From assembly GCA_964521195.1 (NCBI GenBank), contig CAZFRE010000001.1, positions 66,866-130,865 of the forward strand: a stretch of 64,000 bases of DNA. The letters run 5' to 3'. Shown one piece after another: positions 1,822-23,140 of the stretch. Numbering within the stretch: the first letter of the stretch is position 1; each line of letters starts with the position of its first letter. A model generated the notes under the pieces. That model searched no databases and was not told where the DNA came from. It worked only from the letters and a program-made list of their open reading frames with translations. A program made the position numbers and the translations under genes. The stretch comes from an uncultured Eubacteriales bacterium. GTDB taxonomy: Bacteria > Actinomycetota > Coriobacteriia > Anaerosomatales > JAAXUF01.

Positions 1822-1904
1822 ACCACCGGCTTTGGCCGCAGCCATCGGCACTCGCTTGTCCACGCCTACTTCGAGGGTTATGCTCAGACGCGCCCCTTCC
1901 ACAG

Positions 1905-2019
1905 GGGAGAGCGACTCCGATTCCGGATCGGCCTAAAGCGGCTGGCGCCTGCCATGGTCACCGGGACAGCAGGGTATCGAGGGAAACCTCGATGCCTCCC
2001 GTGCTTGGAAAGGAGACCC
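1905..2019 (+). promoter_or_regulatory. Moco/Tuco riboswitch-like element, copy A (SD-embedding)
   Basis: Carries the conserved blocks CUCCGA, GCCUA, a GAAA-capped hairpin (1976-1993), GCCUCCC (1994-2000) and GGAAAGGAG (2007-2015). Their order matches what I recall of the E. coli moaA Moco RNA (GCCUCCCGUAUCUGGAAAGG). The GGAAAGGAG block doubles as the SD for the ATG at 2022. Confidence 0.7.
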
Positions 2020-2021
2020 AT

Positions 2022-2744
2022 ATGCGCCAGTATCGCCCGCTGCCCGGCAGCAGCCGGGCACGGCGGATCGCCGCGTTTGCCGTGTTGGTTGTTGTCGCAA
2101 TCTCGGTCAGTGCCTGCAAGGCCAAAGACCGTGCGATCACCGAAATCGCGAGCGAACCCGTTTCGACAGGCACCGTTCAAGCGCAGCTCCCGGTGGATCC
2201 GAATACCATCGCCATCCCGAACGTCGAGACGACATTCCCCGCATCTGTGACGCCGACGGCGACTGGCGTGGGCGCAGGGACGGACCCCACTGGGGTCACC
2301 GAGAGTTTCGCCGAGGCGATCGCTCCTGACCCGGCCAAGCCCGGGAGTTGGTGGCCCAAGCGCGTCGGCCGCTTCGCTGACAACTTCAAGCCGCCCACGT
2401 GGTATCCGCGATGGCTGCCGAAAGGCTACAAGTTCGAATCCCTTGACCTCGTGGAGTTCGACGCGGGCCAGAGTGGTCTGGCGTGCGACATCGTGTTCCT
2501 CAACGGCGACAAGGTCCTGCAGTTCACCCAGGGCAGTCCCAAGAACCGCGACTACGAGATCGTCTCGGTGAAGACCGTCAAGTGGGGCGATTCGACCGCG
2601 TACGTCATGCATCAGGACCCGGCTGATACCAGCACTCCGATCATGATCGTGATGAACCAGGACGGGAATCTGTGCGAGCTTCAAGGCGACGCCTCTCAAG
2701 CCGTGCTCGAGAAGGTTGCGGCGAGTATGGAGGTCATCGAGTAG
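2022..2744 (+). CDS. Putative lipoprotein of unknown function (DUF4367/LolA-like flavour)
   Basis: ATG at 2022 lies 6 nt after AGGAG. Signal peptide plus lipobox (VAISVSAC). The upstream part of track ORF 1992-2744 overlaps the riboswitch and was trimmed. Confidence 0.6.
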   Translation: MRQYRPLPGSSRARRIAAFAVLVVVAISVSACKAKDRAITEIASEPVSTGTVQAQLPVDPNTIAIPNVETTFPASVTPTATGVGAGTDPTGVTESFAEAIAPDPAKPGSWWPKRVGRFADNFKPPTWYPRWLPKGYKFESLDLVEFDAGQSGLACDIVFLNGDKVLQFTQGSPKNRDYEIVSVKTVKWGDSTAYVMHQDPADTSTPIMIVMNQDGNLCELQGDASQAVLEKVAASMEVIE

Positions 2745-2764
2745 TGGTTTACCGCCGCGCTGGC

Positions 2765-2876
2765 GGCGTTGGCTCCGACTCCGGAACGGCCTACTGCAGG
2801 TGGCGCCTGCCACGGTCGCCGGAGCGTCAGGGTCGGGCGGGAAACCGCACGGCCTCCCGTAGTGGAAAGGGGAAGG
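2765..2876 (+). promoter_or_regulatory. Moco/Tuco riboswitch-like element, copy B (SD-embedding)
   Basis: Same conserved blocks as copy A: CUCCGA, GCCUA, a GAAA hairpin (2837-2848), GCCUCCC and GGAAAGG (2864-2870). It lies directly before the SD and the ATG at 2879. Confidence 0.7.
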
Positions 2877-2878
2877 AT

Positions 2879-4102
2879 ATGCGCCACAGGAAGGGGCTGC
2901 CCGGCACCCGGCGGATCGCGCTGGCAGCGTTTGCGGTGACGATCGCATGCGCGCTCGTCGCGCCCGCTCTCGCGAGTGCCGCAACGGTCCGCTCGACGCT
3001 CGTGCTCGGCACGACGTATCAGCTCAAGGCTAAGGGCGTGGTCATCAGCGGCCGCATGCCCTCGCGGCTGAAGGGCAAGAAGATCGGCGTGGAGATTCGC
3101 AAGCCGGGCCGTACGCACTGGGACCAGGTCATCGTCAAGTACGTCCAGAAGGACGGCACGTGGCGCACGACCTACACGCCGAAGCTGGGCGGCAAGTTCT
3201 ACATCCGCGCCCGCTACCTCGCAGGTAACACGCTCTCGCGCACCGCAACGCTGACTGTGAAGAAGGGCCCGGGCGTCAAGACGCAGATTCTCCTCGCATC
3301 GACGACGTCGACGAAGGACTCAGGGCTGTTCGAGCGCATCGGGCCGGCATTCCTGGCCGCATGCCCCGAGTACACGCTCAAGGCGACGTTCGTCGGCTCA
3401 GGTGCTGCAATCGCGCTCGGCGGTTCGGGTGACGCGGATGCGCTCCTCACGCACAGCCCCGCTGCCGAGGTCAAGTTCATGAACGGCTACGTGGCCAGTG
3501 GTACCACGTGGACGCCTTCGCCCTACCGCGGGCTGCGTCGCTACAAGGTCATGTACAACGACTACATCCTTGTCGGCCCGACCGCCAACCCTGCCGGTGT
3601 TGTGAACAGCACCGCCTCCGGCAGCACCAATGCCGCGTTCCAGGCGATCGCCACCGCCGGTTCCACCTTCTGGTCACGCAACGATGGCAGCGGCACGAAC
3701 TCCAAGGAGAAGGCGATCTGGGCAGCCATCGGCAACCCGCAGACCGGTCAGCCGTGGTACAAGGCATCGGGGACCATGGGTATGGCCCAGGCGCTTGCCA
3801 CAGCAAATGACGCCGGTACTTCCGGCTACACGCTCGCCGATCGCGCGACGTGGCTCAACGCCAAGTCGCTCGGCATCGTCCCGAACCTCAAGATCGTCGA
3901 GGAGAAGGACTCGAGCGGAGTGCTGTTCAACCAGTACGCGGTCATCGAGGTCAAGGGTGCCCGCAACAAAGAGGGTGCGCAGGACTTCGCGAACTGGATC
4001 ACGTCTTCTGCCGAGGGGCAGAAGCTCATCGAGACCTACGGTGAGTACACCTATCCGGGCGAGGTCATGTTCGTTCCCAACGCAGGACCGTACCCCTGGT
4101 AG
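2879..4102 (+). CDS. tupA: Tungstate ABC substrate-binding protein (TupA-like) with ~130-aa N-terminal extra domain
   Basis: Signal peptide after the ATG at 2879. The C-terminal PBP domain carries the TupA-type anion motif (ASTTSTKDSGL). The track ORF start at 2672 was rejected because it covers the riboswitch. Confidence 0.7.
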   Translation: MRHRKGLPGTRRIALAAFAVTIACALVAPALASAATVRSTLVLGTTYQLKAKGVVISGRMPSRLKGKKIGVEIRKPGRTHWDQVIVKYVQKDGTWRTTYTPKLGGKFYIRARYLAGNTLSRTATLTVKKGPGVKTQILLASTTSTKDSGLFERIGPAFLAACPEYTLKATFVGSGAAIALGGSGDADALLTHSPAAEVKFMNGYVASGTTWTPSPYRGLRRYKVMYNDYILVGPTANPAGVVNSTASGSTNAAFQAIATAGSTFWSRNDGSGTNSKEKAIWAAIGNPQTGQPWYKASGTMGMAQALATANDAGTSGYTLADRATWLNAKSLGIVPNLKIVEEKDSSGVLFNQYAVIEVKGARNKEGAQDFANWITSSAEGQKLIETYGEYTYPGEVMFVPNAGPYPW

Positions 4103-4118
4103 TCTGACGCGCTAGTAT

Positions 4119-4154
4119 CGGCCCGGCGGTTCACCCCCGCGAACCGCCGGGCCG
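4119..4154 (+). terminator. GC-rich intergenic hairpin between tupA and tupB2 (attenuator/terminator candidate)
   Basis: Perfect 14-nt inverted repeat CGGCCCGGCGGTTC / GAACCGCCGGGCCG with an 8-nt loop. No U-tract follows. Confidence 0.35.
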
Positions 4155-4183
4155 GTCCGCGCTCGGAACAGGAGCAGGAGATC

Positions 4184-4888
4184 ATGCAGATCTACATCGA
4201 TGCGGCCGTCAATGCGTTTCAGCTGATGACGAGTGCCGATCCGACGGTGTGGGAAGTCATCATCCTGTCTTTGGTGGTCTCGGGTTCGGCGATCTGCATC
4301 GCCACGGCGATCGGTGTTCCTCTGGGATACCTGCTCGGCATGAGCCGGTTCGCCGGCCGTGGCGTCATCATCCTGCTCGTGAACACGGCAATGGGATTCC
4401 CGCCTGTGGTCATTGGGCTCTTCGTGTACATGGCGCTGTCACGCAGCGGACCGTTAGGCGGGCTCGAGTGGCTGTTCACGCCGCAGGGCATGATCCTCGC
4501 CCAGGTCATCCTGGCGTCGCCGCTCGTGGTCGGCGTCTCGGCGGCTGCGATATCGGCCGTGCCGCGAGATCTGCGACTGCAGTTGCGCGCGTTGGGGGCT
4601 TCGGGCCTTCAAGAGGGTCGCGAGGTGCTCAAGGAAGCCCGGGGCGGCGTGATCGTGTCGGTGATCGCGGGCTTCGGCGCGATCATCTCCGAGGTGGGGG
4701 CGGTGTCGATCGTCGGCGGCGGCATCGAGGGCTACACCGATGTCATGACCACTGCGATCATGGCGCACGTGCGCCGAGGAGAGCTCCCGGCGGCGATGTC
4801 GTGGGCGATGGTGCTCATGGGCATCGCGCTCATGGTCAACGTGGCGCTCACGACGATGCAGAGTACCGGTACCGCGTATGAGCGCTGA
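4184..4888 (+). CDS. tupB: ABC transporter permease, tungstate/molybdate (TupB-like), copy 2
   Basis: 234 aa, colinear paralog of the ORF at 14-727. Shared blocks include SAVPRDLRLQ and AGFGAIISEVGAV. Confidence 0.7.
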   Translation: MQIYIDAAVNAFQLMTSADPTVWEVIILSLVVSGSAICIATAIGVPLGYLLGMSRFAGRGVIILLVNTAMGFPPVVIGLFVYMALSRSGPLGGLEWLFTPQGMILAQVILASPLVVGVSAAAISAVPRDLRLQLRALGASGLQEGREVLKEARGGVIVSVIAGFGAIISEVGAVSIVGGGIEGYTDVMTTAIMAHVRRGELPAAMSWAMVLMGIALMVNVALTTMQSTGTAYER

Positions 4889-6029
4889 TCCGAAGGTGCA
4901 GGATACGCCCAGCCCATCGGGCGCCACGGTGCGCGCCGAGGCCGTCAAGGTCATCTACCGCAAGAAGACCGTTCTCGACGTCGGGTCCGTATCGCTCCGA
5001 ACCGGCGAGACATTCGTGCTGCTCGGAGCTTCAGGGGCCGGCAAGTCGACGCTCCTGCGAGTGCTCGGACTTCTCGAGAAGCCCTCGGAGGGACAGGTGT
5101 TCTTCGAGGGCCGTCCTGCGAACCGCAACAACCTCGCAATCCGCCGCCAGATCGCGGCGGTGTTCCAGAAGCCCTACCTGCTGCGCGGGACTGTCGGACA
5201 GAACGTCGACTACGGGTTGCGCCTGCGCCACATGGGTGCCCGCGAGCGAGTGACCGCCGTCGCCGATGCGCTCGATCGTGTCGGACTCGCGGGGTGGGAG
5301 GACCGGTCGGCGCTCACGCTCTCGGGAGGCGAGGCACAGCGGGTCGCACTCGCCCGCGCACTCGTCCTCAAGCCCCGGCTGCTCCTGCTCGACGAGCCGC
5401 TCTCATACCTCGATCCCATGCTCAAACGCCAACTCAGCCTGGAGTTCGCGCGGATCCTCGCAGACGAGGGCGTGACGGCGCTCTACGTCACGCACGATCA
5501 AGACGAGGCAGCCGTCGTCGCGGACCGGATCGGTGTCATGCGCGAGGGCCGGATCATTGCCGAGGGCGCGCCGGAAGCGGTGCTCACCTTGCCGCGCGAC
5601 CCGTGGGTCGCGGCGTTTCTCGGGACGGTCACGCCAATCGACGGGATTATCTCCTCAGCCGAGAACGGTGTCGCCCGTGTCGACTGCGCCGGCACGCCCG
5701 TCTTCGCCGCCACCGAGCTGCCGGTCGGCACACGCGTCTCGCTCGGGATTCGTCCCGAGGATGTGCTGCTGTTCGAGCCCGATGTTCCGCTCCCTGCGAC
5801 CTCGGCCCGGAATCGTATCGTCGCGACCGTGACAGACATCGTGCCGTCCGGAGTGACCGTGAAAGTGCTGCTTGCGATAGGCGAGGCCACCATCGCATCT
5901 TCGGTTTCGCGTTCGTCGGTCGAGACGCTGGGGCTTGCGCCTGGTGTGCAGGTGAGTGCCGTCTTCAAGGCCACCGCCGTACGGCTCTTGCCGGGTGCAA
6001 GCGCGACTGACTCGTCTGCTCTCATCTGA
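4878..6029 (+). CDS. tupC: ABC transporter ATP-binding protein with TOBE-like C-terminus (TupC-like), copy 2
   Basis: Walker A GASGAGKST, signature LSGGEAQRV, Walker B LLLDEP. Paralog of the ORF at 724-1821. Confidence 0.75.
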   Translation: MSADPKVQDTPSPSGATVRAEAVKVIYRKKTVLDVGSVSLRTGETFVLLGASGAGKSTLLRVLGLLEKPSEGQVFFEGRPANRNNLAIRRQIAAVFQKPYLLRGTVGQNVDYGLRLRHMGARERVTAVADALDRVGLAGWEDRSALTLSGGEAQRVALARALVLKPRLLLLDEPLSYLDPMLKRQLSLEFARILADEGVTALYVTHDQDEAAVVADRIGVMREGRIIAEGAPEAVLTLPRDPWVAAFLGTVTPIDGIISSAENGVARVDCAGTPVFAATELPVGTRVSLGIRPEDVLLFEPDVPLPATSARNRIVATVTDIVPSGVTVKVLLAIGEATIASSVSRSSVETLGLAPGVQVSAVFKATAVRLLPGASATDSSALI

Positions 6030-6092
6030 CCCGCGCGCCGGCCTTCCGGCGCCCGACGGGTACACTGGACCCGAGGGGCCTGGTCGGCTAGG

Positions 6093-7547
6093 TTGCCGAC
6101 GGACAGTCCACGGCCGAAGGACCATATCGTGACGACACCTCCCACATCGCGCCTCCCGATTACCGCCGCAGTCCTCGCGGGCGGGCGCTCCTTGCGCATG
6201 GGCGTCGACAAGACGCTGCTCGACGTCGAGGGCCAGCCGCTCGTGGTGCGCGTCGCCGAGGCGGTCGGCGCGGTCTGCGAGCACACGCTTGTCGTGACCA
6301 ACCGCCCCGAAGCGCTCGCCGTGGCGGGTCTCTCGGCGGACGTGCGCGTGTTGCAGGACGAGGTCGCGTACCAGGGGCCGCTCGGCGGGCTCGTCACCGC
6401 GCTGGCCGAGGCGCCCGACGAGTGGATGCTCGCCGTCGCTGCGGACATGCCGCACCTGACGCCCGCCGTCATCACCGCGCTGTGGGAGTTGCGCGACGAT
6501 GCCGACGCCGTGGTGCCCGTGACCGAGAAGGGGCTCGAGCCGCTGCTCGCGCTCTACCGCGTAGAGGCGTGTCTGCCGGCCGCGCGCGAGATCCTCGCGA
6601 CCGGACGCCGCCGGCCCGTCGCGGTTTTCGGCCGCGTGAAGACCGTGCAGGTCCCGGCCGAGGCGCTGCGCTCGGTCGACCCCAACCTGCGCTCGCTCAT
6701 CAACGTGAACACTCCGGCCGACCTGCTCGACGCGCGCGAGAGCGCCGGCGACGAGCCGCGCTACGTGCGTGGTGGCGTGAAGCTCGAGGTCATGGAGGTC
6801 TCCAGCCGCCGCTCCACCCGCTCGATGCCGAGCGAGACGCCGGTCACCATCCACCTCAACGACCGCGAGATCGCGACCACGCAGGCCACGCCGAGCGACC
6901 TCGAAGACCTGGCCGCGGGCTTCCTGCTCTCGGAGGGGCTCCTCACCGACCGCGACGCGCTCACCTCGATCGACGTCGATGTGAAGCGCGGCATGGTGTG
7001 GGTCACCTCGGCTGAGGACCTTGGGAGCGACATCGGCGAGCGGACGCGCTACCTCACGAGCGGCTGCGGCCGCGGCGTGACGTTCGCGAGCGTCGCCGAC
7101 GCCCGCGGGCTTTCCCCGATCGACTCGGCGATGCGCGTGAGCGCCGATGAGATCTACGACCTCGTCGGCGAGATGGCGCGGCGGGCGGCGATGTATCGCG
7201 ACAGCGGCGGCGTGCACGCGTGCGGGCTCGCGCGCGGAGGCACGCTCGAGATCGTGCGCGAAGACGTGGGCCGCCACAACGCGCTCGACAAGGTGCTCGG
7301 GCGCGCGTGGCTCGACCGCATTCCCACGAGCGAGGCGATCCTGCTCTCGACGGGACGGCTCTCCTACGAGATGACGGTCAAGGCCGCCAAGTCGCGCGTG
7401 CCGATCGCGGTCTCGCGCAGCGCCGTCACCGACCTGGCCGCCGACATCGCGAGCGAGCTCGGCATCACGCTCGTGGGCTACGCGCGCGGCGGCAAGCTCA
7501 CCGTCTACACCGGTTCTGAGCGCATCACAACCGCCGAGGAGGCGTGA
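6093..7547 (+). CDS. fdhD: Fusion protein: MobA-like molybdenum cofactor guanylyltransferase (N) + FdhD-like formate dehydrogenase sulfurtransferase (C)
   Basis: N-terminus has the MobA motif LAGGRSLRMGVDK. C-terminus has the FdhD-type blocks SGCGRG, GGVHACGL and VGRHNALDKVLG. The start may instead be the GTG at 6129, which has a better SD (GAAGGA). Confidence 0.7.
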   Translation: MPTDSPRPKDHIVTTPPTSRLPITAAVLAGGRSLRMGVDKTLLDVEGQPLVVRVAEAVGAVCEHTLVVTNRPEALAVAGLSADVRVLQDEVAYQGPLGGLVTALAEAPDEWMLAVAADMPHLTPAVITALWELRDDADAVVPVTEKGLEPLLALYRVEACLPAAREILATGRRRPVAVFGRVKTVQVPAEALRSVDPNLRSLINVNTPADLLDARESAGDEPRYVRGGVKLEVMEVSSRRSTRSMPSETPVTIHLNDREIATTQATPSDLEDLAAGFLLSEGLLTDRDALTSIDVDVKRGMVWVTSAEDLGSDIGERTRYLTSGCGRGVTFASVADARGLSPIDSAMRVSADEIYDLVGEMARRAAMYRDSGGVHACGLARGGTLEIVREDVGRHNALDKVLGRAWLDRIPTSEAILLSTGRLSYEMTVKAAKSRVPIAVSRSAVTDLAADIASELGITLVGYARGGKLTVYTGSERITTAEEA

Positions 7548-7551
7548 CGCA

Positions 7552-8811
7552 ATGCCAGAGACGATGACCGTCGAGCAGGCTCTCGGGCTCGTGCTCGGTT
7601 TCGTGAAGCCGATGCCGGTCGAGCGAGTTCCGCTGCTCGACGCGCTCGGCCGGGTGCTCGCCGAAGACGCCACGAGCGACATCGATGTGGCGCCCTTCGA
7701 CAACTCGGCGATGGACGGCTTCGCGGTGCGTGCCGCCGACCTTGCCGGCGCGAGCGACCTGACCCCGCGCGAACTCGACGTCATCGCACACATCGCGGCC
7801 GGTGACGACGTGGCCGGCATCGAGGTCGGCCCCGGTCAGGCCGCTCGCATCATGACCGGCGCGGCGGCGCCTGCCGGCGCGGACGCCGTCGTGATGGTGG
7901 AGCTCACGAGCGTGGTCGCCGGCGACGGCGGCACCGGCTCGCGCGTCGCGTTCGTGGTCGAGCCGCGCGACGGCGAGCACATCCGCCGTCGCGGCGAGGA
8001 GGTGCGGGCGGGCGACATCGTGATCTCGGCGGGCGAACTGCTCGGCCCGGCGGGTATCGGGCTGCTCGCGTCCACCGGGCACGACACCGTTCCGGTGTAT
8101 GTGCGCCCCCGTGTCGCCGTGCTCTCGACCGGAAGCGAGCTCGTCGAGGTCGCCGAGAAGCCCGGTCCGGGCAAGATCCGCAACTCCAACAGCTACTCGA
8201 TCGCCGCTCAGGTGCTCGCGGCCGGCGGCGTGCCGGTGCGCTACGGCATCGTGCCCGACGACATGGATGCGACGCACGCCGCGTTCGAGCTGGCCGCTGA
8301 CGAGTGCGACTTCATCCTCACGAGCGGTGGCGTCTCGGTAGGCGACTTCGACTTCGTCAAGCCGGTGCTCGAAGAGCTGGGGCAGCTGACCTTCTGCAAG
8401 GTGAAGATGCGTCCGGGCAACCCGCAGACGCTCGGCACCATCCAGGGCGTGCCGTTCTTCGGGCTGCCGGGGAATCCCACGAGCACGTACGTCGGGTTCG
8501 AGATATTCGTGCGGCCGGCGCTTAGGATGATGCAAGGTTTCTCGGAGCTGAAGCGGCCGGTCACGATGGCACGCCTCTCGCACGATGTGAAGAAGAAGCA
8601 AGATCGCAGGTACTACCTGCGTGGACGTTGTGAACGTGCAGCAGACGGTGCCGGGTTCGAGGCGTCCCTTTCCGGGAGCCAGTCATCGGCGCTCCTGACC
8701 GCTGCGCACCGTGGCAACTGTTTCGTGGTTCTACCCGAAGGTGATGGTCTGTTCGCCGCCGGCACGCTCGTAGAGTGCGTCCGGCTCGATATGGAGGAGG
8801 GCACGCCGTGA
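7552..8811 (+). CDS. moeA: Molybdopterin molybdenum/tungsten transferase MoeA
   Basis: 419 aa with typical MoeA blocks (PFDNSAMDGFAV, TGGVSVGDFD, GLPGNPTS). Confidence 0.85.
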   Translation: MPETMTVEQALGLVLGFVKPMPVERVPLLDALGRVLAEDATSDIDVAPFDNSAMDGFAVRAADLAGASDLTPRELDVIAHIAAGDDVAGIEVGPGQAARIMTGAAAPAGADAVVMVELTSVVAGDGGTGSRVAFVVEPRDGEHIRRRGEEVRAGDIVISAGELLGPAGIGLLASTGHDTVPVYVRPRVAVLSTGSELVEVAEKPGPGKIRNSNSYSIAAQVLAAGGVPVRYGIVPDDMDATHAAFELAADECDFILTSGGVSVGDFDFVKPVLEELGQLTFCKVKMRPGNPQTLGTIQGVPFFGLPGNPTSTYVGFEIFVRPALRMMQGFSELKRPVTMARLSHDVKKKQDRRYYLRGRCERAADGAGFEASLSGSQSSALLTAAHRGNCFVVLPEGDGLFAAGTLVECVRLDMEEGTP

Positions 8812-9026
8812 GCCGCAAGGATCCGAAGGACATCGACCCGCGCTGGGCCGAGCAGGTGACCGACGAGATGAAGGACGCGATCGCGGCCAAGGCGGTCGAC
8901 GGGCACGTCACCTGTCCGGTGTTGCGCAAGTACGCCGAGGACACCGGCGTGCCCTACAAGGTAGCCGGTGCGGCCGCCGACATGGCGGGCATCAAGGTCC
9001 ACAACTGCGACCTGGGCTGCTTCTAG
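8808..9026 (+). CDS. Small conserved-looking protein, unknown function, C-terminal HNCDLGCF
   Basis: GTG at 8808 overlaps the moeA stop (GTGA), suggesting translational coupling. 72 aa, lying between moeA and mobB. Confidence 0.45.
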   Translation: MSRKDPKDIDPRWAEQVTDEMKDAIAAKAVDGHVTCPVLRKYAEDTGVPYKVAGAAADMAGIKVHNCDLGCF

Positions 9027-9049
9027 CCAACGACGAATAGGGGTAAGAC

Positions 9050-9589
9050 ATGACGGCTGCGCCGAACACGGTGCCGATCGTCTCAGTGGTGGGGAAGGGC
9101 GACTCCGGCAAGACGACCTTCCTCGAGAAGCTGATTCGCGAACTGGCGGATCGCGGCGTTCGCGTTGCGACCGTGAAGCATCACATCCACGACTACGACA
9201 TCGACGTCCCCGGCAAGGACTCGTACCGCCACGCGCGTGCGGGCGCCTTCGCGACGATGGTCTCGTCTCCCGAGAAGTTCGCGCTCATCCACGACGTCGA
9301 AGAGGAGATGCCGCTCGACACGATCGCCGGCGTCGCCGCGGCCGCGGGTGCGGACCTGCTCATCACCGAGGGCTACAAGCGCGAGGGCCGCAACCGCATC
9401 GAGATCAACCGCAGCGCCCGCTCCGACACGCTCATCTGCGAACCCGGCGAGATGACCGCGCTCGTGACCGACAACGAGTCGCTCGCCGCCGAGATCGCCG
9501 CGGCCGGCGTCCCGGTCTTCGGCCTTGACGACGGCTTCGTCGGCGTCGCCGACCTCATCGCCGAAAAGTTCCTGCGAGACGACGCCTGA
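9050..9589 (+). CDS. mobB: Molybdopterin-guanine dinucleotide biosynthesis adaptor MobB
   Basis: P-loop VVGKGDSGKTT followed by VATVKHH, as is typical of MobB. Confidence 0.8.
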   Translation: MTAAPNTVPIVSVVGKGDSGKTTFLEKLIRELADRGVRVATVKHHIHDYDIDVPGKDSYRHARAGAFATMVSSPEKFALIHDVEEEMPLDTIAGVAAAAGADLLITEGYKREGRNRIEINRSARSDTLICEPGEMTALVTDNESLAAEIAAAGVPVFGLDDGFVGVADLIAEKFLRDDA

Positions 9590-10614
9590 TGGCCACCGAC
9601 GCGCACGGCAGGCGCATCGACTACCTCCGGATATCGCTCACCGACCGGTGCAACCTGCGCTGCGTCTACTGCATGCCCGAGTCCGGCGTCGCCTGGAAGG
9701 ATCCGTCCGAGATCCTGACCTACGACGAGATCCTCCGGTTCTCGCGCGTCGCGGTCGAGGAAGGCATCAGCAAGATCCGGCTTACCGGCGGCGAGCCGCT
9801 CGTGCGCCGCGGCGTACCGGACCTCGTCCGCGACCTGCGCGCGATCGCCGGCGTCGAGAGCCTCGCGCTCACCACGAACGCCACGCTGCTGCCGCGTTTC
9901 GCGGCCGAGCTGCGCGACGCCGGCCTCGAGCGCATCAACATCAGCCTCGACTCGCTCGACCCCGAGGCGTACGCCCGCATCACACGCGGCGGCAACCTTC
10001 AGGATGCGCTCGACGGCCTCGATGCCGCGTTCGAGACCGGCTTCTCGCCGGTCAAGCTCAACGTCGTCGTCGTGCGCTCGCTCGCCCAAGACCTGCTCGG
10101 CTTCGCGAAGATGTCGCTCGGGCGGCCGCTGCACGTGCGGTTCATCGAATACATGCCGGTCGGCGACGCCGAGGAGGGCTCGGGCTGCCACTCCGACGGC
10201 AGCGCCTCGTGGACCGCGGCCGACACGATGCCGAGCGAGGAGGTCGTCGACCGCATCTCCGCCGAAGGCGTAGCCGCGGGCCTCGGCGAGCTGCTCGAAG
10301 TCGAGCGCGACAAGGCGCCCGGCGGTTGGGGGCCGGCGCGGTACTACCGTTTCGCGGAGTCGCAGGGCACCGTCGGCGTCATCTCACCGCTCTCGCATCA
10401 CTTCTGCGCCGAGTGCAACCGCCTGCGGCTCACCGCCGACGGCCGCCTGCGCCCGTGCCTGTTCAGCGACAACGAACTCGACGTGCGCACCGTGCTTCGG
10501 GAAGGTACCGATGAGGACGTGCGTGCGATCGTCCGCGAGGCGTTGCGCATCAAGCCCGAGAACCACGCCGAGCGCATCGGCACCGAACGCCAGATGTCCC
10601 AGATCGGGGGCTAG
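9589..10614 (+). CDS. moaA: GTP 3',8-cyclase MoaA (radical SAM)
   Basis: Radical SAM motif CNLRCVYC near the N-terminus and a C-terminal cluster motif CAECNRLRLTADG. ATGA overlap with mobB. Confidence 0.9.
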   Translation: MATDAHGRRIDYLRISLTDRCNLRCVYCMPESGVAWKDPSEILTYDEILRFSRVAVEEGISKIRLTGGEPLVRRGVPDLVRDLRAIAGVESLALTTNATLLPRFAAELRDAGLERINISLDSLDPEAYARITRGGNLQDALDGLDAAFETGFSPVKLNVVVVRSLAQDLLGFAKMSLGRPLHVRFIEYMPVGDAEEGSGCHSDGSASWTAADTMPSEEVVDRISAEGVAAGLGELLEVERDKAPGGWGPARYYRFAESQGTVGVISPLSHHFCAECNRLRLTADGRLRPCLFSDNELDVRTVLREGTDEDVRAIVREALRIKPENHAERIGTERQMSQIGG

Positions 10615-10617
10615 CAG

Positions 10618-11115
10618 ATGTCGAACGAGCTCACCCATCTCGACGAGCACGGCAACGCGCATATGGTCGACGTCGCCGATAAGGCCGTCACGCACCGCCG
10701 GGCGGTCGCGGGCGGCTTCGTCGCGATGCTGCCGGAGACGCAGGCGCTCATCACCGGCGGCAGCGCGAAGAAGGGCGACGTGCTCGCCGCCGCCCGCATC
10801 GCCGGCATCATGGCCGCGAAGCGTACGAGCGACCTGATCCCGCTGTGCCACCCGATCTCGCTCACACGCGTGAGCGTGGAGCTCGCGGCAAGCGACGACA
10901 CCGCGCGGCCCGGCATCGCGATCACCGCGACCGCCGAGACCGACGGCAAGACCGGCGTCGAGATGGAGGCGCTCACGGCAGCCTCTGTCGCGGCGCTCAC
11001 TATCTACGACATGTGCAAGGCAGTCGACCGCGGCATGGTCATCTCGGATGTGCGCCTGCTCCACAAGGAAGGCGGCAAGTCGGGGACCTGGACGCGAGAG
11101 GAGCAGGGCGAATGA
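10618..11115 (+). CDS. moaC: Cyclic pyranopterin monophosphate synthase MoaC
   Basis: 165 aa with MoaC blocks (HMVDV, LIPLCHP, EMEALTA, IYDMCKA). Confidence 0.9.
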
Positions 11116-11669
11116 GTGAGGCAGCAGGCGCGAAAGGCCGCGTCGTCTCGGTGAACCTGTCTGAGAAGAAGACCGTGCGAAAGCAGCGCTTCGAGCGCGG
11201 CACGCTCGTGCTCGATCGCGGCTTCGAGGGCGACGCGCACGCCGGCGACTGGCACCGCCAGGTCTCGTTCCTCGCGCAGGAGTCGATCGACCTCATGCGC
11301 GAGAAGGGGCTCGACGTGGGCCCCGGTGACTTCGCCGAGAACATCACCACCGAGGGCGTCGACGTCATGACGCTGCCGGTCGGTTCGATCGTGCGCGTCG
11401 GCGACACGGTGCTCGAGATCAGCCAGGTGGGCAAGGTCTGCCACAACAAGTGCGCTATCTACTACCAGGCGGGCGACTGCGTCATGCCGCGCGAGGGCGT
11501 CTTCGCCGTCGTGCGCACCGCAGGAGAGATCTCTGTGGGTGACGAGGTCGAGATCGTGTCGCTTGGCGACGGCACCTGCGAGCGTTCGCCCGAGGACTCG
11601 CTCGCGGAGTCCGAGAGCGTGCGGGCGGCCAACGAGTGCCGCAAGCTCGAGAAGGAGGCGGCGCAGTAG
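11112..11669 (+). CDS. MOSC domain-containing protein
   Basis: ATG at 11112 overlaps the moaC stop (ATGA). MOSC-like beta-barrel sequence with a conserved Cys (GKVCHNKC). Confidence 0.6.
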
Positions 11670-12142
11670 TGGCGGACCTCAGCGTCGGCATAATCACCTG
11701 CTCGGACACGCGAGGCGAGGCCGAGGACACCGCCGGCCGGGCACTCTCGGAGCTCATCGCCGATCACGGCTGGACGCTCGCCGGCTATCAGGTCGTGCCC
11801 GACGAGCGGCTGCGCATCGAAGCGGCTATCGTCGAGATGGCCGACGGCGGTGCCGACGTCATCCTCACCTGCGGCGGCACTGGGCTCGGACCGCGCGACA
11901 TCACGCCCGAGGCGACGCTCGCGGTCTGCAACCGCCCGGTCCCCGGCATCGCCGAGCACATGCGCGCCGAGTCGCTGAAGGTCACCGGCCGCGCGATGCT
12001 CTCGCGAGCGACCGCCGCGGCGCGCGGCACCACGCTCGTGGTGAACCTCCCCGGTTCGGAAAAGGCCGCGCGCGAGTGCTTCGGCTTCGTCGCCGACCAG
12101 TTCGAGCACGCGGTGAAGATGATGCACGGCGGGGGCCACTGA
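11669..12142 (+). CDS. moaB: MoaB/MogA-family molybdenum cofactor biosynthesis protein
   Basis: GTG at 11669 lies 11 nt after GAAGGAGG. Blocks TCSDTRG, TCGGTGLGPRD and NLPGS are present. The track start at 11636 overlaps the MOSC gene. Confidence 0.8.
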   Translation: MADLSVGIITCSDTRGEAEDTAGRALSELIADHGWTLAGYQVVPDERLRIEAAIVEMADGGADVILTCGGTGLGPRDITPEATLAVCNRPVPGIAEHMRAESLKVTGRAMLSRATAAARGTTLVVNLPGSEKAARECFGFVADQFEHAVKMMHGGGH

Positions 12143-12146
12143 TCCG

Positions 12147-13349
12147 ATGGCGAATACTCGCGAGCACACCGCCCCGCGTCCTCGTACGGTCTACTTCGAC
12201 CACGCGGCGACGTCATGGCCCAAGCCACCCGAGGTCGTCTCGGCGGTTGAGCGGTCGCTGACCGAGCACGGGGGCAACCCGGGCCGTGGAGCGTACAGCA
12301 TGGCGGTCGACACCGCGCGGGCGATCCACGCCGCCCGCCGCGAGGTGGCGGCGCTGCTCGGCGTGGCAGACGCCAAGAACCTGCTGTTCCAGCCGGGCTG
12401 CACGCAGGCGATGAACCTCATGCTGTTCGGGCTGATCAAGCCGGGCGATCGCGTCGTCGCGTGTCCAACGGAGCACAACGCTGTCGCGAGGCCACTGAAC
12501 GTGCTCGCATCGCGAGGCGTCGAGGTCGTGCTCGCGGCCGCTGACGATGCTGGCTTCGTTGACGTGGACAGTGTCGAGGCGCTCGTCGCCGAGGCGCCTA
12601 CTCGCGCCGTGGTGTGCCAGCATGCCGGCAACGTCACCGGGACGATCCAGCCCGTCGCCGATCTCGCCGACATCGCGCACGAGCGTGGTGCGCTCATGCT
12701 GGTCGATGGGGCACAGGCCGGCGGCCACCTGCCCATCGACCTGTCGACCCTCGGTGCCGATGCGTGGGCCTGCTCGGGTCACAAGGGCCTGCTCGGCCCG
12801 CAGGGCATCGGCGTGTTGTATCTCGCGCCGGAGTGCGAGCCCGACGAGTTCGTGTTCGGCGGGAGCGGGCAGGGCGAGAGCGAGCATCCGATAGGCCCTC
12901 GATCGCGACCCGACCGCTACGAGGCCGGCACGCCCAACACGCCGGGTATCGTCGGGCTGGGAGCGGCGGCGCGGTGGCTCGCCGAGCACGGCGATGAACA
13001 GCGTGCACACGAGGCCGCGCTGACTCGGAGGCTCGTAGCCGGTGTGCGCGCACTGCCCGGCTACCGCGTGCTCGGCCCCGATCGCGACGAGCCGCGCGTA
13101 CCGGTCGTCTCGGTGGTGCACGAGCGCGCGCAAGCCGATCAGCTCGCGTTCACGCTGGACCGGAGATATGGAATTGCTGTGCGTTCCGGCCTGCACTGTG
13201 CGCCGTGGGCACATACTTCGCTCGGGACGATCGAGTCCGGAGCCTTGCGAATGAGCATCGGATTCGGGTTGAGTGAGGCCGACGTTGACCTCGCGATCGA
13301 GGCGCTCGGCGTTCTCGGCAAGGAGTACGGTGGCTCTGAGCAGGCGTGA
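12147..13349 (+). CDS. Class-V aminotransferase / cysteine desulfurase family protein
   Basis: PLP-lysine context CSGHKGL and a C-terminal active-site-like RSGLHCAP. Located at the end of the Moco biosynthesis gene string. Confidence 0.75.
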   Translation: MANTREHTAPRPRTVYFDHAATSWPKPPEVVSAVERSLTEHGGNPGRGAYSMAVDTARAIHAARREVAALLGVADAKNLLFQPGCTQAMNLMLFGLIKPGDRVVACPTEHNAVARPLNVLASRGVEVVLAAADDAGFVDVDSVEALVAEAPTRAVVCQHAGNVTGTIQPVADLADIAHERGALMLVDGAQAGGHLPIDLSTLGADAWACSGHKGLLGPQGIGVLYLAPECEPDEFVFGGSGQGESEHPIGPRSRPDRYEAGTPNTPGIVGLGAAARWLAEHGDEQRAHEAALTRRLVAGVRALPGYRVLGPDRDEPRVPVVSVVHERAQADQLAFTLDRRYGIAVRSGLHCAPWAHTSLGTIESGALRMSIGFGLSEADVDLAIEALGVLGKEYGGSEQA

Positions 13350-13373
13350 TGAGCCTGGGAACGCGGAGCCGTG

Positions 13374-13402
13374 TTTGACACAGTGTCCACTCGCCCGTAG
13401 AT
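13374..13402 (+). promoter_or_regulatory. Candidate sigma-70-type promoter for the TPR/NHL genes
   Basis: TTGACA (13374-13379), 17-nt spacer, TAGATT (13397-13402). It lies in the 126-nt gap upstream of the TTG start at 13476. Confidence 0.4.
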
Positions 13403-13475
13403 TCGTGCGGGCGTTCTGAGAGCGTCGACGAACGGCCCCGGCAGGCCACGGCGCTGAAGTAAGGGAGATCTCGCT

Positions 13476-14477
13476 TTGTTGAAGCGGGTAACGCTGCTCG
13501 ATGCAGCCATCGGAGTTGTGATCGTCGCTATCCTTCTCGTCGGTGGGTACTTCGCCTACTCGGTCTATGCGAACAACCAGGCGTTGCGCACCGGATCCCC
13601 GGCCAACCGCGAGATCGAGGCGCTCAAGCAGAAGCTCAAGCTCAAGCCCAACGACGTGGAGACCCGCATGCGCCTGGCGCAGGCGCTTTCCGTCGCCGGC
13701 CGTGGAGACGACGCGATCGAGCAGTACCAGCAGGTACTCAAGCTCAACGACGAGTGGGTGCCAGCGCTGTCGGGCGTCGGCTTCGAGCTGATGAAGCAGA
13801 AGGACTGGAAGGGCGGCGAGGAGTACTTCAAGCGAGTCATCAAGCTCACTGAAGGCAAGACGCCCGACATGGCCAGCGGCAGCTCCGCCGAGATCGCGAA
13901 CTACTATGTGGGTATCGCGAGGATGGAGCAGCGCGACTACTCGGGCGCGGCCGGCTACCTGAAGCAGGCTCTGCGCATGCGCCGCGATGCGTCGGACACC
14001 GCATACGCGCTCTCGGTCTGCTACGGCAAGCTCGACATCACCGACGGCCAGCGCGAGATGCTGGCGTACACACTCCAGTTCGATCCCAAGATGCCTGAGG
14101 CGAACTACGACTACGGCAAGATACTGCTGGCCTCCGGCGACGTCGCTGGCGCCGCCGAGCACTTCAGGACTTCGTCCACATCCGCACCGTATAAGCAGGA
14201 GCCCAAGGACGAGCTCGCGAAGCTCGGCTCGGCCACGGAGCGGTTCGCCGAGGCGAAGAAGCTCGCGTCGACCGATGCGAGCTCGGCACTCGTGGAGGCG
14301 AGAGTGGCCGCTGCGCTCGACCCCGAATCCGTGGAGTCGCTGCTACTCGTGGGCACACTCTACGAGAAGGTCAAGAAGAAGGACGACGCGAAGACCACGT
14401 ACGAGAAGGTATTGGTCATCGATCCCGGCAACGCCACCGCAACCGCCGGACTGAAACGGGTGAAGAATGGCTCCTGA
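13476..14477 (+). CDS. Membrane-anchored TPR repeat protein
   Basis: TTG start 9 nt after AAGGGAG. One N-terminal TM helix, then several TPR-like 34-aa repeats. Overlaps the downstream gene by 11 nt. Confidence 0.7.
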   Translation: MLKRVTLLDAAIGVVIVAILLVGGYFAYSVYANNQALRTGSPANREIEALKQKLKLKPNDVETRMRLAQALSVAGRGDDAIEQYQQVLKLNDEWVPALSGVGFELMKQKDWKGGEEYFKRVIKLTEGKTPDMASGSSAEIANYYVGIARMEQRDYSGAAGYLKQALRMRRDASDTAYALSVCYGKLDITDGQREMLAYTLQFDPKMPEANYDYGKILLASGDVAGAAEHFRTSSTSAPYKQEPKDELAKLGSATERFAEAKKLASTDASSALVEARVAAALDPESVESLLLVGTLYEKVKKKDDAKTTYEKVLVIDPGNATATAGLKRVKNGS

Positions 14478-16086
14478 CGAAAGCCCGGAGGTCACGGAAG
14501 TAGCGAGCGATGAGGACTCCGTCCTCCCGACGGAGTCGCTTGCGAACGCCATCGCCCGTGACGGGCTGCGCCCGGAGGACCCGCGGAAGCTGACGAGCCG
14601 CGAGCGCCGCCGCCGCCTCATCCTTCTGGCGATTCTGGCGCTGCTGCTCCTGCTGCTCAGCTACCTCGCCTACTACTACACGATGAACCGCAGAATGCCG
14701 AGCCTGGGGCTCGCGCCTGCGGGCAGCGACTACATCGAGCCCCCGCGCTACCTCTACTCGATCTCCGCTGACGGCGCCCAGTCCCTCGTCCGGCCGGTCG
14801 GTGTCGGCGTCGCCGATGACGGCCGGGTCTACGTCGTCGACTTCGGGCACCGGCGGGTGAGCGTCTTCAGCAATCCCGGCCGCTACCTGTTCTCCTTCGA
14901 TACGACCGCCGACGGCAAACTCGTCAATGCGGTGCACCTGGTCATCAACGATGGCGAGGTGTGGGTTTCCGAGCGCTCGAACCGCACGATCTACGTCTTC
15001 GATCTCGAGGGCAACTACCTGCGCAAGTTCGTCCCGAAGAACGAACCTGATCTGAAGTGGACCCCCCTCGCGTTCTCGTTCGACGCGAGCGGGGCACTGC
15101 GCGTCACCGACGTGGGGGACACGAACAACCACAGGCTGCACTACTTCTCCGTGGATGGGAGTCGGACTGCCACCATCGGGAAGACCGCGCAGGTCAACTC
15201 GCTGCAGGAGCAGCCGGGCACGTTCCTGTTCCCGAACGGCGTCGCGGTGGACGCCAAGGGCGAGGTCTACGTCTCCGACGGCGACAACCGACGCGTCCAG
15301 GTCTTCGATCCCAACGGGGCGTTCCTGCGCTTCATCGACACGAGCGGCGTGCCCCGGGGTATCGCCATCGATCAGAAGAGTCGACTCTATGTGGCCGATG
15401 CTCTCGCGCACACGGTCTCCGTGTTCGACCTGAAGGGCAAGATGCTCACCCAGTTCGGCGAGCGTGGGTTTGGCCCGGGCCAGTTCAACTACCCCAACGA
15501 CATCGCCATCGACAGGCGGGGTCGCATCTACATCACCGACCGCGAGAACGGCCAGGTACAGGTGTGGGGCTGGTCGGTCGCGCAGATTCCGCCGGTCCCG
15601 GTTCCGAAGACACCGTTGGCATGGCTTGCCGCCCTGGCGTGCTGCCTGCCGCTCATCCTGCTGCCGCTATTGCTCCTTGCCCGCCGCAAGGTCCGCGTCG
15701 TCGTGACGCCGGAGTTCATGGATGCCTTGGAACTGGTCGGCGAAATCCGGCCGACCGCCGAGAAGGCGCGCGTGCGGCTTATCGCACCGGAAGAGGATCT
15801 GGCGCACTACGAGGGCCGGGTCGTAGACTCCATCGTGCTGACCGACCTGCTCACGTTCGAGGAGTACTCGGAATCGGACGCGCGTGCGCTCATGGAGAAG
15901 TACAAGATCACGCAGCGTCCGGCGATGCTGCTTTCGATGGCATGGCGCGCTAAGGCACTGGCCACGGACGACAACGACCTGCGACTCCTGGCTCTGCTGG
16001 CGGAGATCAGAACGGTCGACGTCAAGGAGTTCCGTGAGATCTATCTCAAACGCGACGTTGTCGCTGAAGAGGTGGATGGAGAGTAG
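14467..16086 (+). CDS. Two-TM NHL-repeat beta-propeller protein with ~135-aa cytoplasmic C-terminal domain
   Basis: A TM helix at about residues 52-72, then NHL-type repeats (for example GVAVDAKGEVYVSDGDNRRVQVFD and DIAIDRRGRIYITDRENGQVQVW). A second TM follows (LAALACCLPLILLPLLLLA), then a charged C-terminal domain. Confidence 0.7.
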   Translation: MAPDESPEVTEVASDEDSVLPTESLANAIARDGLRPEDPRKLTSRERRRRLILLAILALLLLLLSYLAYYYTMNRRMPSLGLAPAGSDYIEPPRYLYSISADGAQSLVRPVGVGVADDGRVYVVDFGHRRVSVFSNPGRYLFSFDTTADGKLVNAVHLVINDGEVWVSERSNRTIYVFDLEGNYLRKFVPKNEPDLKWTPLAFSFDASGALRVTDVGDTNNHRLHYFSVDGSRTATIGKTAQVNSLQEQPGTFLFPNGVAVDAKGEVYVSDGDNRRVQVFDPNGAFLRFIDTSGVPRGIAIDQKSRLYVADALAHTVSVFDLKGKMLTQFGERGFGPGQFNYPNDIAIDRRGRIYITDRENGQVQVWGWSVAQIPPVPVPKTPLAWLAALACCLPLILLPLLLLARRKVRVVVTPEFMDALELVGEIRPTAEKARVRLIAPEEDLAHYEGRVVDSIVLTDLLTFEEYSESDARALMEKYKITQRPAMLLSMAWRAKALATDDNDLRLLALLAEIRTVDVKEFREIYLKRDVVAEEVDGE

Positions 16087-16115
16087 TTGACCCGGCCCTT
16101 TTAGGGGTCTATTGT
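16087..16115 (+). promoter_or_regulatory. Candidate sigma-70-type promoter for the formate dehydrogenase/cytochrome operon
   Basis: TTGACC (16087-16092), 17-nt spacer, TATTGT (16110-16115). It sits about 80 nt upstream of riboswitch copy C. Confidence 0.4.
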
Positions 16116-16197
16116 GGGGCTACGCGGAGTTTGTGACGATTGTTGCAAGCCAGCGAGCGGTCCGGCAGTCGCTTGCGAACCGCCTTGAAAGCGCGAC

Positions 16198-16306
16198 ACA
16201 GACGATCTCCGAGCCTTCCAGCCTAAGGCGTCCCCAAGACGCTATGGCTTCAAGGCCGATGGGTGCCAGTGGAAACGCTGACGCCTCCCGACTTGGAAAG
16301 GAGACC
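16198..16306 (+). promoter_or_regulatory. Moco/Tuco riboswitch-like element, copy C (terminator-coupled)
   Basis: Blocks CUCCGAGCC, GCCUA, a GAAA hairpin (16067+200: 16267-16280), GCCUCCC (16282-16288) and GGAAAGGAG (16295-16303). The GAAA-hairpin stem covaries among the three copies (ATCGAGG/CCTCGAT, GCGG/CCGC, CAGTG/CGCTG). Confidence 0.7.
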
Positions 16307-16394
16307 GCACACACCGGGAGGCCCCAGGATGGGGACCTCTTAGCTGTGCGGCGCTTTCCTCGGGGTAAGGAAGATCGGCATGAGTACGAAAACG

Positions 16395-16449
16395 AACCGG
16401 TATGCAGCGGGGCAGTCCCCCGACTTTGCGTACCGGTTTTTCGTTTTGT
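16395..16449 (+). terminator. Intrinsic terminator-like hairpin plus U-tract in the operon leader
   Basis: AACCGGTA ... TACCGGTT stem with an inner CGGGG/CCCCG stem, followed by TTTTCGTTTTGT. A T-run like this is rare in so GC-rich a sequence. Confidence 0.55.
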
Positions 16450-16543
16450 GTGCTCCCAATCGCCTCCCCGAACAGATGAGAGGAGGCGATCGCGCGGGAT
16501 AGGCAATCCTCACACAAGGTAGGGAGCTAGTTCTTATCCGTAC

Positions 16544-16570
16544 TACCTCCGAGAGAAAGGAATGGAGGTA
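16544..16570 (+). promoter_or_regulatory. SD/start-codon sequestering hairpin
   Basis: TACCTCC (16544-16550) is complementary to GGAGGTA (16564-16570). The latter holds the SD and the first base of the ATG at 16570. Confidence 0.4.
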
Positions 16571-23101: not shown

Positions 23102-23131
23102 GAAGGGCCGGGGAGGAATCCCCGGCCCTTT
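23102..23131 (+). terminator. GC-rich hairpin after the cytochrome gene
   Basis: GAAGGGCCGGGG / CCCCGGCCCTTT stem with a 6-nt loop, 40 nt after the stop codon. No clear U-tract. Confidence 0.4.
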
Positions 23132-23140
23132 CCCTATCGA

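Follow-up and report, generated by a model that had tools for sequence, protein, structure and literature searches.

The subject of this work is a 64-kb stretch of DNA from an uncultured bacterium of the class Coriobacteriia (NCBI GenBank assembly GCA_964521195.1, contig CAZFRE010000001.1, positions 66,866 to 130,865 of the forward strand), below called the window, and in particular three RNA elements in it that match the riboswitch family of the molybdenum and tungsten cofactors (Moco and Tuco; Rfam family RF01055). We refer to these elements as copies A, B and C. They are located in the 5' leaders of a Tup-like transporter, of a row of cofactor-biosynthesis genes and of a formate dehydrogenase (FDH). 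On the evidence taken jointly we consider it likely that all three are functional riboswitches that lack the stem P3, A and B acting as OFF switches and C as an ON switch that works through a short open reading frame (ORF) in its leader.

The window opens inside a Tup-like transporter, below called the second transporter, whose binding protein falls beyond the window start. Copy A stands before the gene of a predicted lipoprotein, copy B before another Tup-like transporter that is followed by the cofactor-biosynthesis row, and copy C before the FDH genes (Table 1). Relatives of the window are named by handles such as L001 where they have to be told apart.

Table 1. Features of the window that are discussed in the text (nt, nucleotides; aa, amino acids; SD, Shine–Dalgarno sequence)
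Feature	Position	Strand	Remarks
Upstream Tup-like ATP-binding cassette (ABC) permease	14-727	+	Pfam/NCBIfam; window opens inside the gene
Upstream Tup-like ATPase with TOBE domain	724-1821	+	Pfam/NCBIfam
Copy A, P3-less RF01055 aptamer	1903-2031	+	63.6 bits, E 5.7e-13
Copy A, P1 5' strand	1913-1918	+
Copy A, P2 apical loop CTGGCGC	1942-1948	+	complementary to GCGCCAG 2024-2030
Copy A, P1 3' strand GGAGAC	2012-2017	+	doubles as SD
Predicted lipoprotein, 240 aa	2022-2744	+	predicted to be gated by copy A
Copy B, P3-less RF01055 aptamer	2761-2888	+	51.3 bits, E 2.3e-09
Copy B, P2 loop GTGGCGC	2800-2806	+	complementary to GCGCCAC 2881-2887
Copy B, P1 3' strand/SD GGGGAA	2869-2874	+
TupA-like binding protein, 407 aa	2879-4102	+	predicted to be gated by copy B; Pfam PBP_like_2, NCBIfam, PDB
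TupB-like permease	4184-4888	+	NCBIfam
ATPase with TOBE domain	4878-6029	+	Pfam
Cofactor-biosynthesis row: MobA-FdhD fusion, MoeA, MobB, MoaA, MoaC, MOSC-domain protein	6093-11669	+
Promoter-like site TTGACC-17-TATTGT upstream of copy C	16087-16115	+	1 found vs 0.0 expected in shuffles; consensus match only
Copy C, P3-less RF01055 aptamer	16196-16314	+	68 bits, E 2.9e-14
Copy C, strand a: 5' flank and P1 5' strand	16199-16210	+
Copy C, strand b: P1 3' strand GGAAAGGAGA	16295-16304	+
Copy C leader, hairpin 1	16305-16351	+	variable among leaders
Copy C leader, strand c: pyrimidine tract CTTTCC	16354-16359	+	complementary to b
Copy C leader, strand d: invariant GGGGTAAGG and spacer	16362-16378	+	SD-like; complementary to a
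Predicted leader ORF, 40 codons	16380-16502	+	ATG 6 nt past the SD-like motif; runs through the terminator
Intrinsic terminator: 17-bp stem 16396-16437, then TTTTTCGTTTTG	16396-16448	+	RNAfold -27 kcal/mol
Post-terminator element GCTCCC	16452-16457	+
Post-terminator element GAGAGGAGG	16478-16486	+
Post-terminator element GGGAGC	16522-16527	+
FDH alpha subunit, FdnG-like, twin-arginine (Tat) signal, selenocysteine, 1,422 aa	16570-20838	+
FDH 4Fe-4S subunit	20852-21790	+
FDH multihaem cytochrome c	21794-23062	+

Three P3-less members of RF01055

A covariance-model scan of the whole window against Rfam, in which the gathering score of RF01055 is 36 bits, returned exactly three matches to this family and no match to any other at the gathering threshold. 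All three exceed that score, lie on the plus strand and extend over the full-length model (Table 1). A preliminary description of this DNA, made from its sequence alone, had proposed three copies of the Moco/Tuco type; the scan bears it out, and the positions it gave agree with the matches within a few bases. The blocks that it listed as shared are indeed found in A, B and C in the same order (CUCCGA / CCUA / GAAA-capped hairpin / GCCUCCC / GGAAAGG), and the tetraloop stems that it quoted are present in the three copies and all of them pair. Model positions 66-80, which form P3, are deleted in each copy and replaced by 0-2 nt. As far as the presence of the sequences goes, a GAAA tetraloop caps P4 in all three copies, and the tetraloop receptor in the P2 bulge has the canonical form CCUAAG...UAUGG in C and variant forms, CCUAA/CCUAC...AUGG/ACGG, in A and B.

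For the comparison with relatives we built a P3-less covariance model, R1, from eight copies of the A and B kind and used it to align all copies, the final set of 33 coming from this window and from related Coriobacteriia assemblies. In a set of 16 copies 89.8% of the alignment cells were paired, as against 72.4% in column shuffles and at most 48% in registers slid along the sequence, with changes on both sides in 25 of the 35 pairs. With 33 copies the figures are 90.1%, 75.1% and at most 46%, and 26 of the 35 pairs, in helices P1, P2, P4 and P5, show compensatory changes on both sides. Not one of 500 shuffles was as high as any of the observed covariation measures. It should be noted that the fit of the alignment to the structure works in favour of the observed pairing; the margin over the slid controls is large nonetheless. 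The covariation that the preliminary description had seen by eye is borne out. Every one of the 33 copies matches the P3-less model end to end (lengths 110-124 nt), with a junction of 2-5 nt at the place of P3.

Judged by these sequence criteria, the three RNAs of the window are almost certainly genuine members of the Moco/Tuco riboswitch family. For the opposite view, that the matches arose by chance or are non-functional remnants in decay, we see practically no room: the E-values range from 2e-9 to 3e-14, and in up to 20 genomes the elements occupy orthologous sites and show compensatory changes. One further partial match of R1 in the window, at 23103-23140 (15.5 bits, E 0.037), covers P4-P5 only and was taken as chance.

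With RF01055 or R1, copies A and B were both detected in eight of nine distinct related contigs; the most divergent of the nine, L003, has copy B only. Relatives carry additional RF01055 copies before a second, short Tup-like binding protein and before a protein of 493/494 aa. The former belong to the second transporter, which in relatives has its own copy (L001 6665, L002 14127, L005 14131). The latter lie on the minus strand at L002 7662-7781 (72.9 bits) and L003 8696-8819 (74.4 bits); in these two contigs the 493/494-aa protein, which has no Pfam domain and is another member of the regulon, starts ~160 nt downstream of its RF01055 copy. The 33-copy alignment (A7) contains two sequence types of the aptamer, that of A and B (CTCCGAT/C, an AA bulge and a GGCGCC loop) and that of C and the second transporter (TCTCCGAGCC...GGCCG). 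The types have been exchanged between positions, since the copy that precedes the lipoprotein gene in L005 is of the C/second-transporter type.

For copy C, we searched the species genomes of GTDB with the N-terminal part of the FDH and obtained 19 orthologous loci, all of them from Coriobacteriia or from mislabelled metagenome-assembled genomes. An RF01055 match of 51-72 bits lies upstream of the FDH start, at the same distance, in all 19. A scan of metagenomes for the pattern TGGAAAGGAGN{50,80}GGGTAAGG yielded chance matches, and the aptamer was found in none of 80 loci among the matches listed.

Copies A and B as probable translational switches

In A and B the 3' strand of P1, with its GGAG or GGGG core, is at the same time the SD, so the preliminary description was right in placing the SD inside the conserved aptamer strand. 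The start codons, at 2022 and 2879, follow 4 nt past this strand and 6 nt past the core. When ligand is bound P1 would close and the SD would be hidden, which would turn translation OFF with one switch per cistron; an SD placed in P1 represses E. coli moaA (PMC2408646). We regard it as very probable that A and B are translational OFF switches of this kind. Copy B begins 17 nt after the stop codon of the gene behind copy A, and a sequence scan of this interval found no terminator and no promoter-like site, so that copy B is probably internal to the transcript and there is one gate for each cistron. A possible promoter of copy A, TTGTCC-17-TATGCT at 1856-1884, ends 19 nt before the aptamer; with 8 of 12 matches it is below the threshold of our scan, and no comparable site precedes copy B.

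A second contact may add to this control. In the 16 copies of the A/B type the 7 nt at the apex of P2 form a loop complementary to a stretch that begins with the last base of the start codon (G) and takes in codons 2 and 3, and a core of 5 bp is paired in every one of them. The core carries a double change in L003 (GGUGC:GCACC, codon 2 from Arg to His) and another, independent of it, in L147 (GGCUC:GAGCC, codon 2 from Arg to Ser), and the outermost pair alternates between C:G and G:C. Several observations weigh against the contact. It depends on two compensatory changes, each a singleton; the GGCGCC loop is palindromic; and the start tail has a rival partner in the 5' flank, with which it forms an outer part of P1 in the Rfam model. 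This rival pairing is formed in 81% of cases, with a single compensatory change, and four copies of the A type lack it. On sequence evidence that is thin, the loop-to-start pairing is probably a second lock on the initiation site, by which the P2 loop would hold the start codon G and codons 2-3. A corresponding pseudoknot between GGGGTAAGG and the P2 loop in C-type aptamers was considered and dropped, as those loops are not conserved.

The leader of copy C

The preliminary description stated that copy C is followed by a terminator with a U tract. The terminator is present, with the U tract extending to 16448; as for its dependence on the aptamer, folding of the RNA alone gives no link between the two. 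It was missed by a simple terminator scan because of its long loop. It begins 80 nt past the aptamer, and another 120 nt separate its end from the FDH start codon (16570); the whole distance from the aptamer end to that codon is 255 nt.

We aligned 20 leaders along their whole length, that of copy C in the window and those of the 19 FDH orthologues, and folded their variable helices sequence by sequence. The order of the parts is the same in the 20 genomes: a variable hairpin, the pyrimidine tract, GGGGTAAGG, ATG or GTG, the terminator, the elements GCTCCC/GARAGGAGG/GGGAGC and the SD of the FDH gene. GGGGTAAGG is invariant in all 20 leaders and is followed after 1-17 nt by ATG or GTG in 19 of them, with exchanges of ATG for GTG among these. 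Terminators are found in 20 of 20 (-18 to -31 kcal/mol), each with a U-rich tail; the base of their stem covaries and was the only part that RNAalifold recovered from the MAFFT leader alignment. No Rfam family matches the leader of copy C.

The predicted leader ORFs have 10-72 codons and cover at least the 5' strand of the terminator in 19 of 19 leaders. Their peptide sequence is not conserved, and no codon bias is visible. In six leaders the ORF overlaps the FDH start. Downstream of the terminator, GCTCCC and GGGAGC form a long-range helix with GARAGGAGG inside it, which shows covariation (GCTTCC:GGAAGC in L010 and L023, for example) and is outside the switch model described below.

How copy C may switch

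Can the aptamer reach the terminator through RNA pairing alone? The mean pair probability of the terminator stem is 0.93 when P1 is enforced and 0.95 without constraint, and the terminator is within the minimum-energy fold of both truncated aptamer states. An antiterminator made of RNA only was rejected on these grounds, as the state of the aptamer leaves the terminator unaffected. A classical terminator/antiterminator switch, as implied by the preliminary description, with the SD-like motif and the ATG incidental, is therefore a doubtful explanation of copy C. A strong and conserved terminator does follow the aptamer in every leader, and terminator platforms are documented for RF01055 (PMC2408646, PMC11725836); against this stand, besides the folding results, the 80 nt that separate terminator and aptamer and the fact that no conserved strand is common to both. 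In the copy of the window strand d can also pair with the 3' arm of the terminator; on inspection this pairing does not covary in the leaders with CCAG/CTGG variants.

Folding of the full-length leaders points to an alternative pairing between the strands of P1 and the leader behind the aptamer. P1 does not form in the unconstrained ensemble of any of the 20 leaders; in its place strands a and d share 5.8 pairs on average, b and c 4.7 (at least 4 b:c pairs in 14 of the 20). Each strand was then tested as a duplex with the partner from its own leader (cognate) and with those from the other 19 (non-cognate), the mean rank of the cognate partner being 10.5 under the null. It is 6.3 of 20 for a:d (-11.1 kcal/mol cognate versus -8.9 non-cognate), 7.5 for a:b and 7.7 for b:c, where the cognate duplex is again the stronger one; c:d, at 11.0, has no cognate preference. 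The start site of the leader ORF opens at a cost of 5.6 kcal/mol when P1 is enforced and of 12.3 kcal/mol when a soft penalty disallows P1, and the cost is lower with P1 enforced in all 20 leaders (Wilcoxon p 2e-6). On this scheme GGGGTAAGG would be invariant because it serves as SD and because each half of it lies opposite an invariant strand of the aptamer (UCUCC, and CCUCCC in some leaders).

These calculations suggest that ligand frees the leader SD of copy C, which predicts an ON switch. In the model that we propose, without ligand a would pair with d and b with c, the leader ORF could not start, the strong terminator inside it would fold and transcription would stop before the FDH gene. 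With ligand, P1 (a:b) would hold, d would be free and a ribosome would start on the leader ORF; as it reads through the 5' arm of the terminator, RNA polymerase could continue into the FDH gene. From the accessible SD onward this model is a prediction, which takes in translation of the leader ORF, the link between ribosome and terminator and hence the ON direction; copy C is most likely an ON switch of this kind. An ON switch is biologically sensible for FDH, an enzyme that depends on the cofactor. That copy C acts through its leader ORF we put at a little short of an even chance.

Several points count against this mechanism. The direction of the switch depends on the model, as folds of truncated leaders without strand a gave the opposite sign. 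In that truncated version, an OFF switch, c would mask the SD when ligand is bound; it was rejected because c:d lacks a cognate preference, its effect is modest (18 of 20 leaders agreeing) and the sign is reversed in every one of the 20 leaders when they are folded at full length. Ribosome loading and movement would have to fit into ~60 nt of transcription, which needs pausing or tight coupling. One leader, L014, has neither ATG nor GTG. The openness of the ORF had to be discarded as evidence for it, being uninformative at 67% G+C: the frame of the ORF itself is open in 18 of 19 leaders, and the shifted frames are open in 11 and 15 of 19.

In a further explanation the a:d and b:c fold is real, the leader ORF is untranslated and d serves as a decoy against the aptamer; the sign of the switch would then be open and possibly OFF. 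In this case the terminator would attenuate constitutively, or regulation would be exerted through RNA stability, Rho or the FDH start site itself. The a:d/b:c state is the thermodynamic ground state of all 20 leaders, and pairing by itself can account for the invariance of GGGGTAAGG (CCUCCC:GGGG in ~7 of 20 leaders, UCUCC:GGAG); that ORF openness does not discriminate between frames and that the peptide is not conserved also fit an untranslated ORF. What speaks for translation is that a start codon stands at a spacing appropriate to the SD in 19 of 20 leaders although the flanks diverge, including exchanges of ATG for GTG, that the 5' arm of the terminator lies within each of these ORFs, and that folding of the RNA alone, with no ribosome, shows no output of the aptamer. 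On balance we consider the decoy unlikely, and we retain the leader ORF as the working model of copy C. The design of this leader was also looked for before the 493/494-aa gene of the relatives, where it is absent.

Genes of the locus and the nature of the ligand

The preliminary description had taken the transport context to be tungstate (Tup) rather than molybdate (Mod), and the protein comparisons point the same way. The binding protein behind copy B has a Pfam PBP_like_2 domain, TupA and TupB are the top NCBIfam matches of the binding protein and the permease, and the nearest structures are 5my5 (E 6e-38) and 3lr1 (E 2e-26). Of these, 3lr1 was deposited as a tungstate-binding protein, and 5my5 is the TupA of D. 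alaskensis; the residues aligned to its TTTST block are STTST in the protein of the window. No ModA was found among the window proteins in the Pfam, NCBIfam and PDB comparisons. What weighs against a firm assignment is that TupA (127 bits) and TupB (151 bits) stay below their NCBIfam equivalog cut-offs (400 and 320), so that the similarity is at the level of the family and 'Tup-like' is the defensible wording.

After its signal peptide the TupA-like protein has an N-terminal extension of ~100 aa (within 2879-3283), with a weak Filamin/Ig-like match (E 0.04). The extension is kept in the relatives (390-424 aa) and is not found in the short Tup-like binding protein of the same genomes (295-300 aa). 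Just upstream of copy A the relatives have a divergently oriented gene for a 68-aa single-TOBE protein (Mop/molbindin-like) on the minus strand (L001 9531-9737, L002 9497-9703, L003 9383-9589), a position that in the window is occupied by the second transporter. The first gene of the biosynthesis row (6093-7547) codes for a single 484-aa protein in which a MobA-like nucleoside triphosphate (NTP) transferase domain is fused to FdhD; in L001 the same MobA/FdhD genes are fragmented, probably through assembly or frameshift errors. A NifS-like desulfurase also belongs to the row, after the MOSC-domain protein, and a NifQ-like gene is also present in L003 and L004.

The FDH alpha gene contains an in-frame TGA at 17221-17223, in the motif HQARI-U-HSSTVAG. 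A match to SECIS_3 at 17218-17276 reaches 39.3 bits, below the gathering score of 63. Listed by ORFs, the gene is split into 16570-17223 and 17236-20838. The protein is longer than solved FDHs (1,422 versus ~1,000 aa) because of three inserted repeats of ~66 aa (VxLTGT...SSDGLTTY...VLV) at 17713-17913, 18244-18438 and 19546-19743, which match NCBIfam NF052337, 'phage tail tube protein' (E 2.6e-28, 3 stretches).

As to the ligand, the preliminary description referred to published work that proposed Moco- and Tuco-sensing subclasses, told apart by P3. This is accurate: Regulski et al. (2008) found no P3 in 58 of 176 representatives and a near-perfect correlation of its absence with Tuco metabolism (PMC2408646). 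The copies described here are informative for that distinction, as had been suggested, in so far as they add cases that fit the published correlation. We lean slightly towards Tuco rather than Moco, and it should be noted against this that direct binding of Tuco has been reported for no P3-less RNA (PMC2408646).

The three RNAs might instead sense Moco or both metal forms, the absence of P3 being a trait of the lineage and not a determinant of specificity. The link between P3 and Tuco is a correlation with exceptions (PMC2408646), and the biosynthesis genes at the locus serve both metals. The FDH gives mixed signals: its best solved relatives, 1h0h (221 bits) and 6sdv (219 bits), are tungsten enzymes (PMC13397495) that contain selenocysteine, and the molybdenum enzyme FdnG of E. 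coli is nearly as close (195 bits); in Nitratidesulfovibrio the FDH that has a cytochrome c subunit is the molybdenum-dependent one (PMC13397495). The absence of P3 from all 33 copies of the lineage, the Tup-like character of both transporters of the locus and the lack of a ModA among the window proteins argue for tungsten, and we hold the Moco alternative to be a real possibility, if somewhat improbable.

The lipoprotein behind copy A

Behind its signal peptide and lipobox (VSAC) the predicted lipoprotein has a disordered Pro/Thr linker, which leads to a C-terminal domain of ~130 aa. It has no Pfam or NCBIfam match at default thresholds, and only 13 homologues were found among 5.8 billion proteins, all of them from Coriobacteriia-type assemblies; weak DUF4367 matches occur in 10 of these 13 family members. 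AlphaFold models the C-terminal domain with a predicted local distance difference test score (pLDDT) of 72-94, and its best PDB matches are RseB/MucB (E ~1e-3). In every contig fetched the gene lies directly upstream of the long (390-424 aa) TupA-like gene. The rarity of the family, the riboswitch of its own and the place beside tupA make the lipoprotein a candidate accessory of tungstate uptake. The public gene call P0001 (250 aa) starts at an ATG inside aptamer A (ATGCCTCCCGT..., window 1992-2024). Homologues and the position of the SD indicate that 2022 is the real start, and in view of the riboswitch the start of P0001 is an annotation artefact.

Discussion

Among the known systems closest to these elements is the Moco riboswitch of E. 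coli moaA (PMC2408646). It shares with all copies the P1-P2-P4-P5 core, the GAAA tetraloop with its receptor and the CUCCGA / CCUCCC / GGAAAGG blocks, and with A and B the SD inside P1 and the OFF direction. It differs in having P3 and was reported to be unresponsive to tungstate; E. coli has one copy, and the locus described here at least three. Multiplicity of this kind is not new, since Regulski et al. (PMC2408646) described as many as 15 copies per genome, tandem as well as triple arrangements and both platforms in one organism. In E. limosum five P3-less copies control tupABC, a tungstoenzyme and other genes through SD sequestration or terminators, as reported in 2024 (PMC11725836). This system and the triple arrangement of Syntrophomonas wolfei (PMC2408646) are like ours in being P3-less and multi-copy, in preceding tupABC or tungstoenzyme genes and in mixing platforms. 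The window differs from them in its host, a member of the Coriobacteriia, in having one aptamer per cistron on two consecutive genes, in the regulation of a DUF4367-like lipoprotein and in the leader ORF between aptamer and terminator of the FDH copy, for which we found no description in those systems.

The family, its P3-less variant, multi-copy genomes and mixed platforms are thus already published, in 2008 and 2024 (PMC2408646, PMC11725836). For the leader-ORF platform with its predicted ON sign, for the loop-to-start pairing and for the lipoprotein as a regulated gene, all of them computational, we found no published description.

In trp-type leader-peptide attenuation the formation of an intrinsic terminator hairpin is likewise under the control of a ribosome that translates a short leader ORF. 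The input proposed for copy C differs from this: access to the start site, set by the aptamer, takes the place of codon-specific stalling. Another parallel is the B12 riboswitch of M. tuberculosis ppe2 (PMC11260477), also from an actinobacterial host, in which an aptamer controls a short upstream ORF that is needed for the downstream gene. There the aptamer is of another class, ligand turns expression OFF and the ORF acts through termination-reinitiation coupling (PMC11260477); copy C is predicted to be turned ON by ligand, with an ORF that overlaps an intrinsic terminator.

Taken as a whole, the locus may combine opposite outputs: with cofactor in good supply, A and B would switch off the uptake of tungstate and the synthesis of the cofactor, and C would turn on the cofactor-dependent FDH by exposing the start site of a leader ORF, the ribosome on which would override the intrinsic terminator. 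We put this forward tentatively, as an idea with clearly less than an even chance of being right in full. If true, copy C would be the first ligand-ON riboswitch of the Moco/Tuco class and the first of the class to act through a leader ORF, as far as we could find; the pairing of the P2 loop with the start codon and a DUF4367-like lipoprotein in a tungsten regulon would be likewise undescribed for the family.

For annotation, the locus holds a pitfall in two places, a lipoprotein start called inside an aptamer and a selenoprotein FDH split at its TGA by an ORF-based call. For the family, the P3-less type is extended to uncultivated Coriobacteriia, with ~50 new sequences that fit the correlation between P3 and Tuco. 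Finally, the locus offers a natural test pair, in which the same aptamer stands before genes of uptake and synthesis, where it is predicted to act as an OFF switch, and before an enzyme that uses the cofactor, where it is predicted to act as an ON switch.

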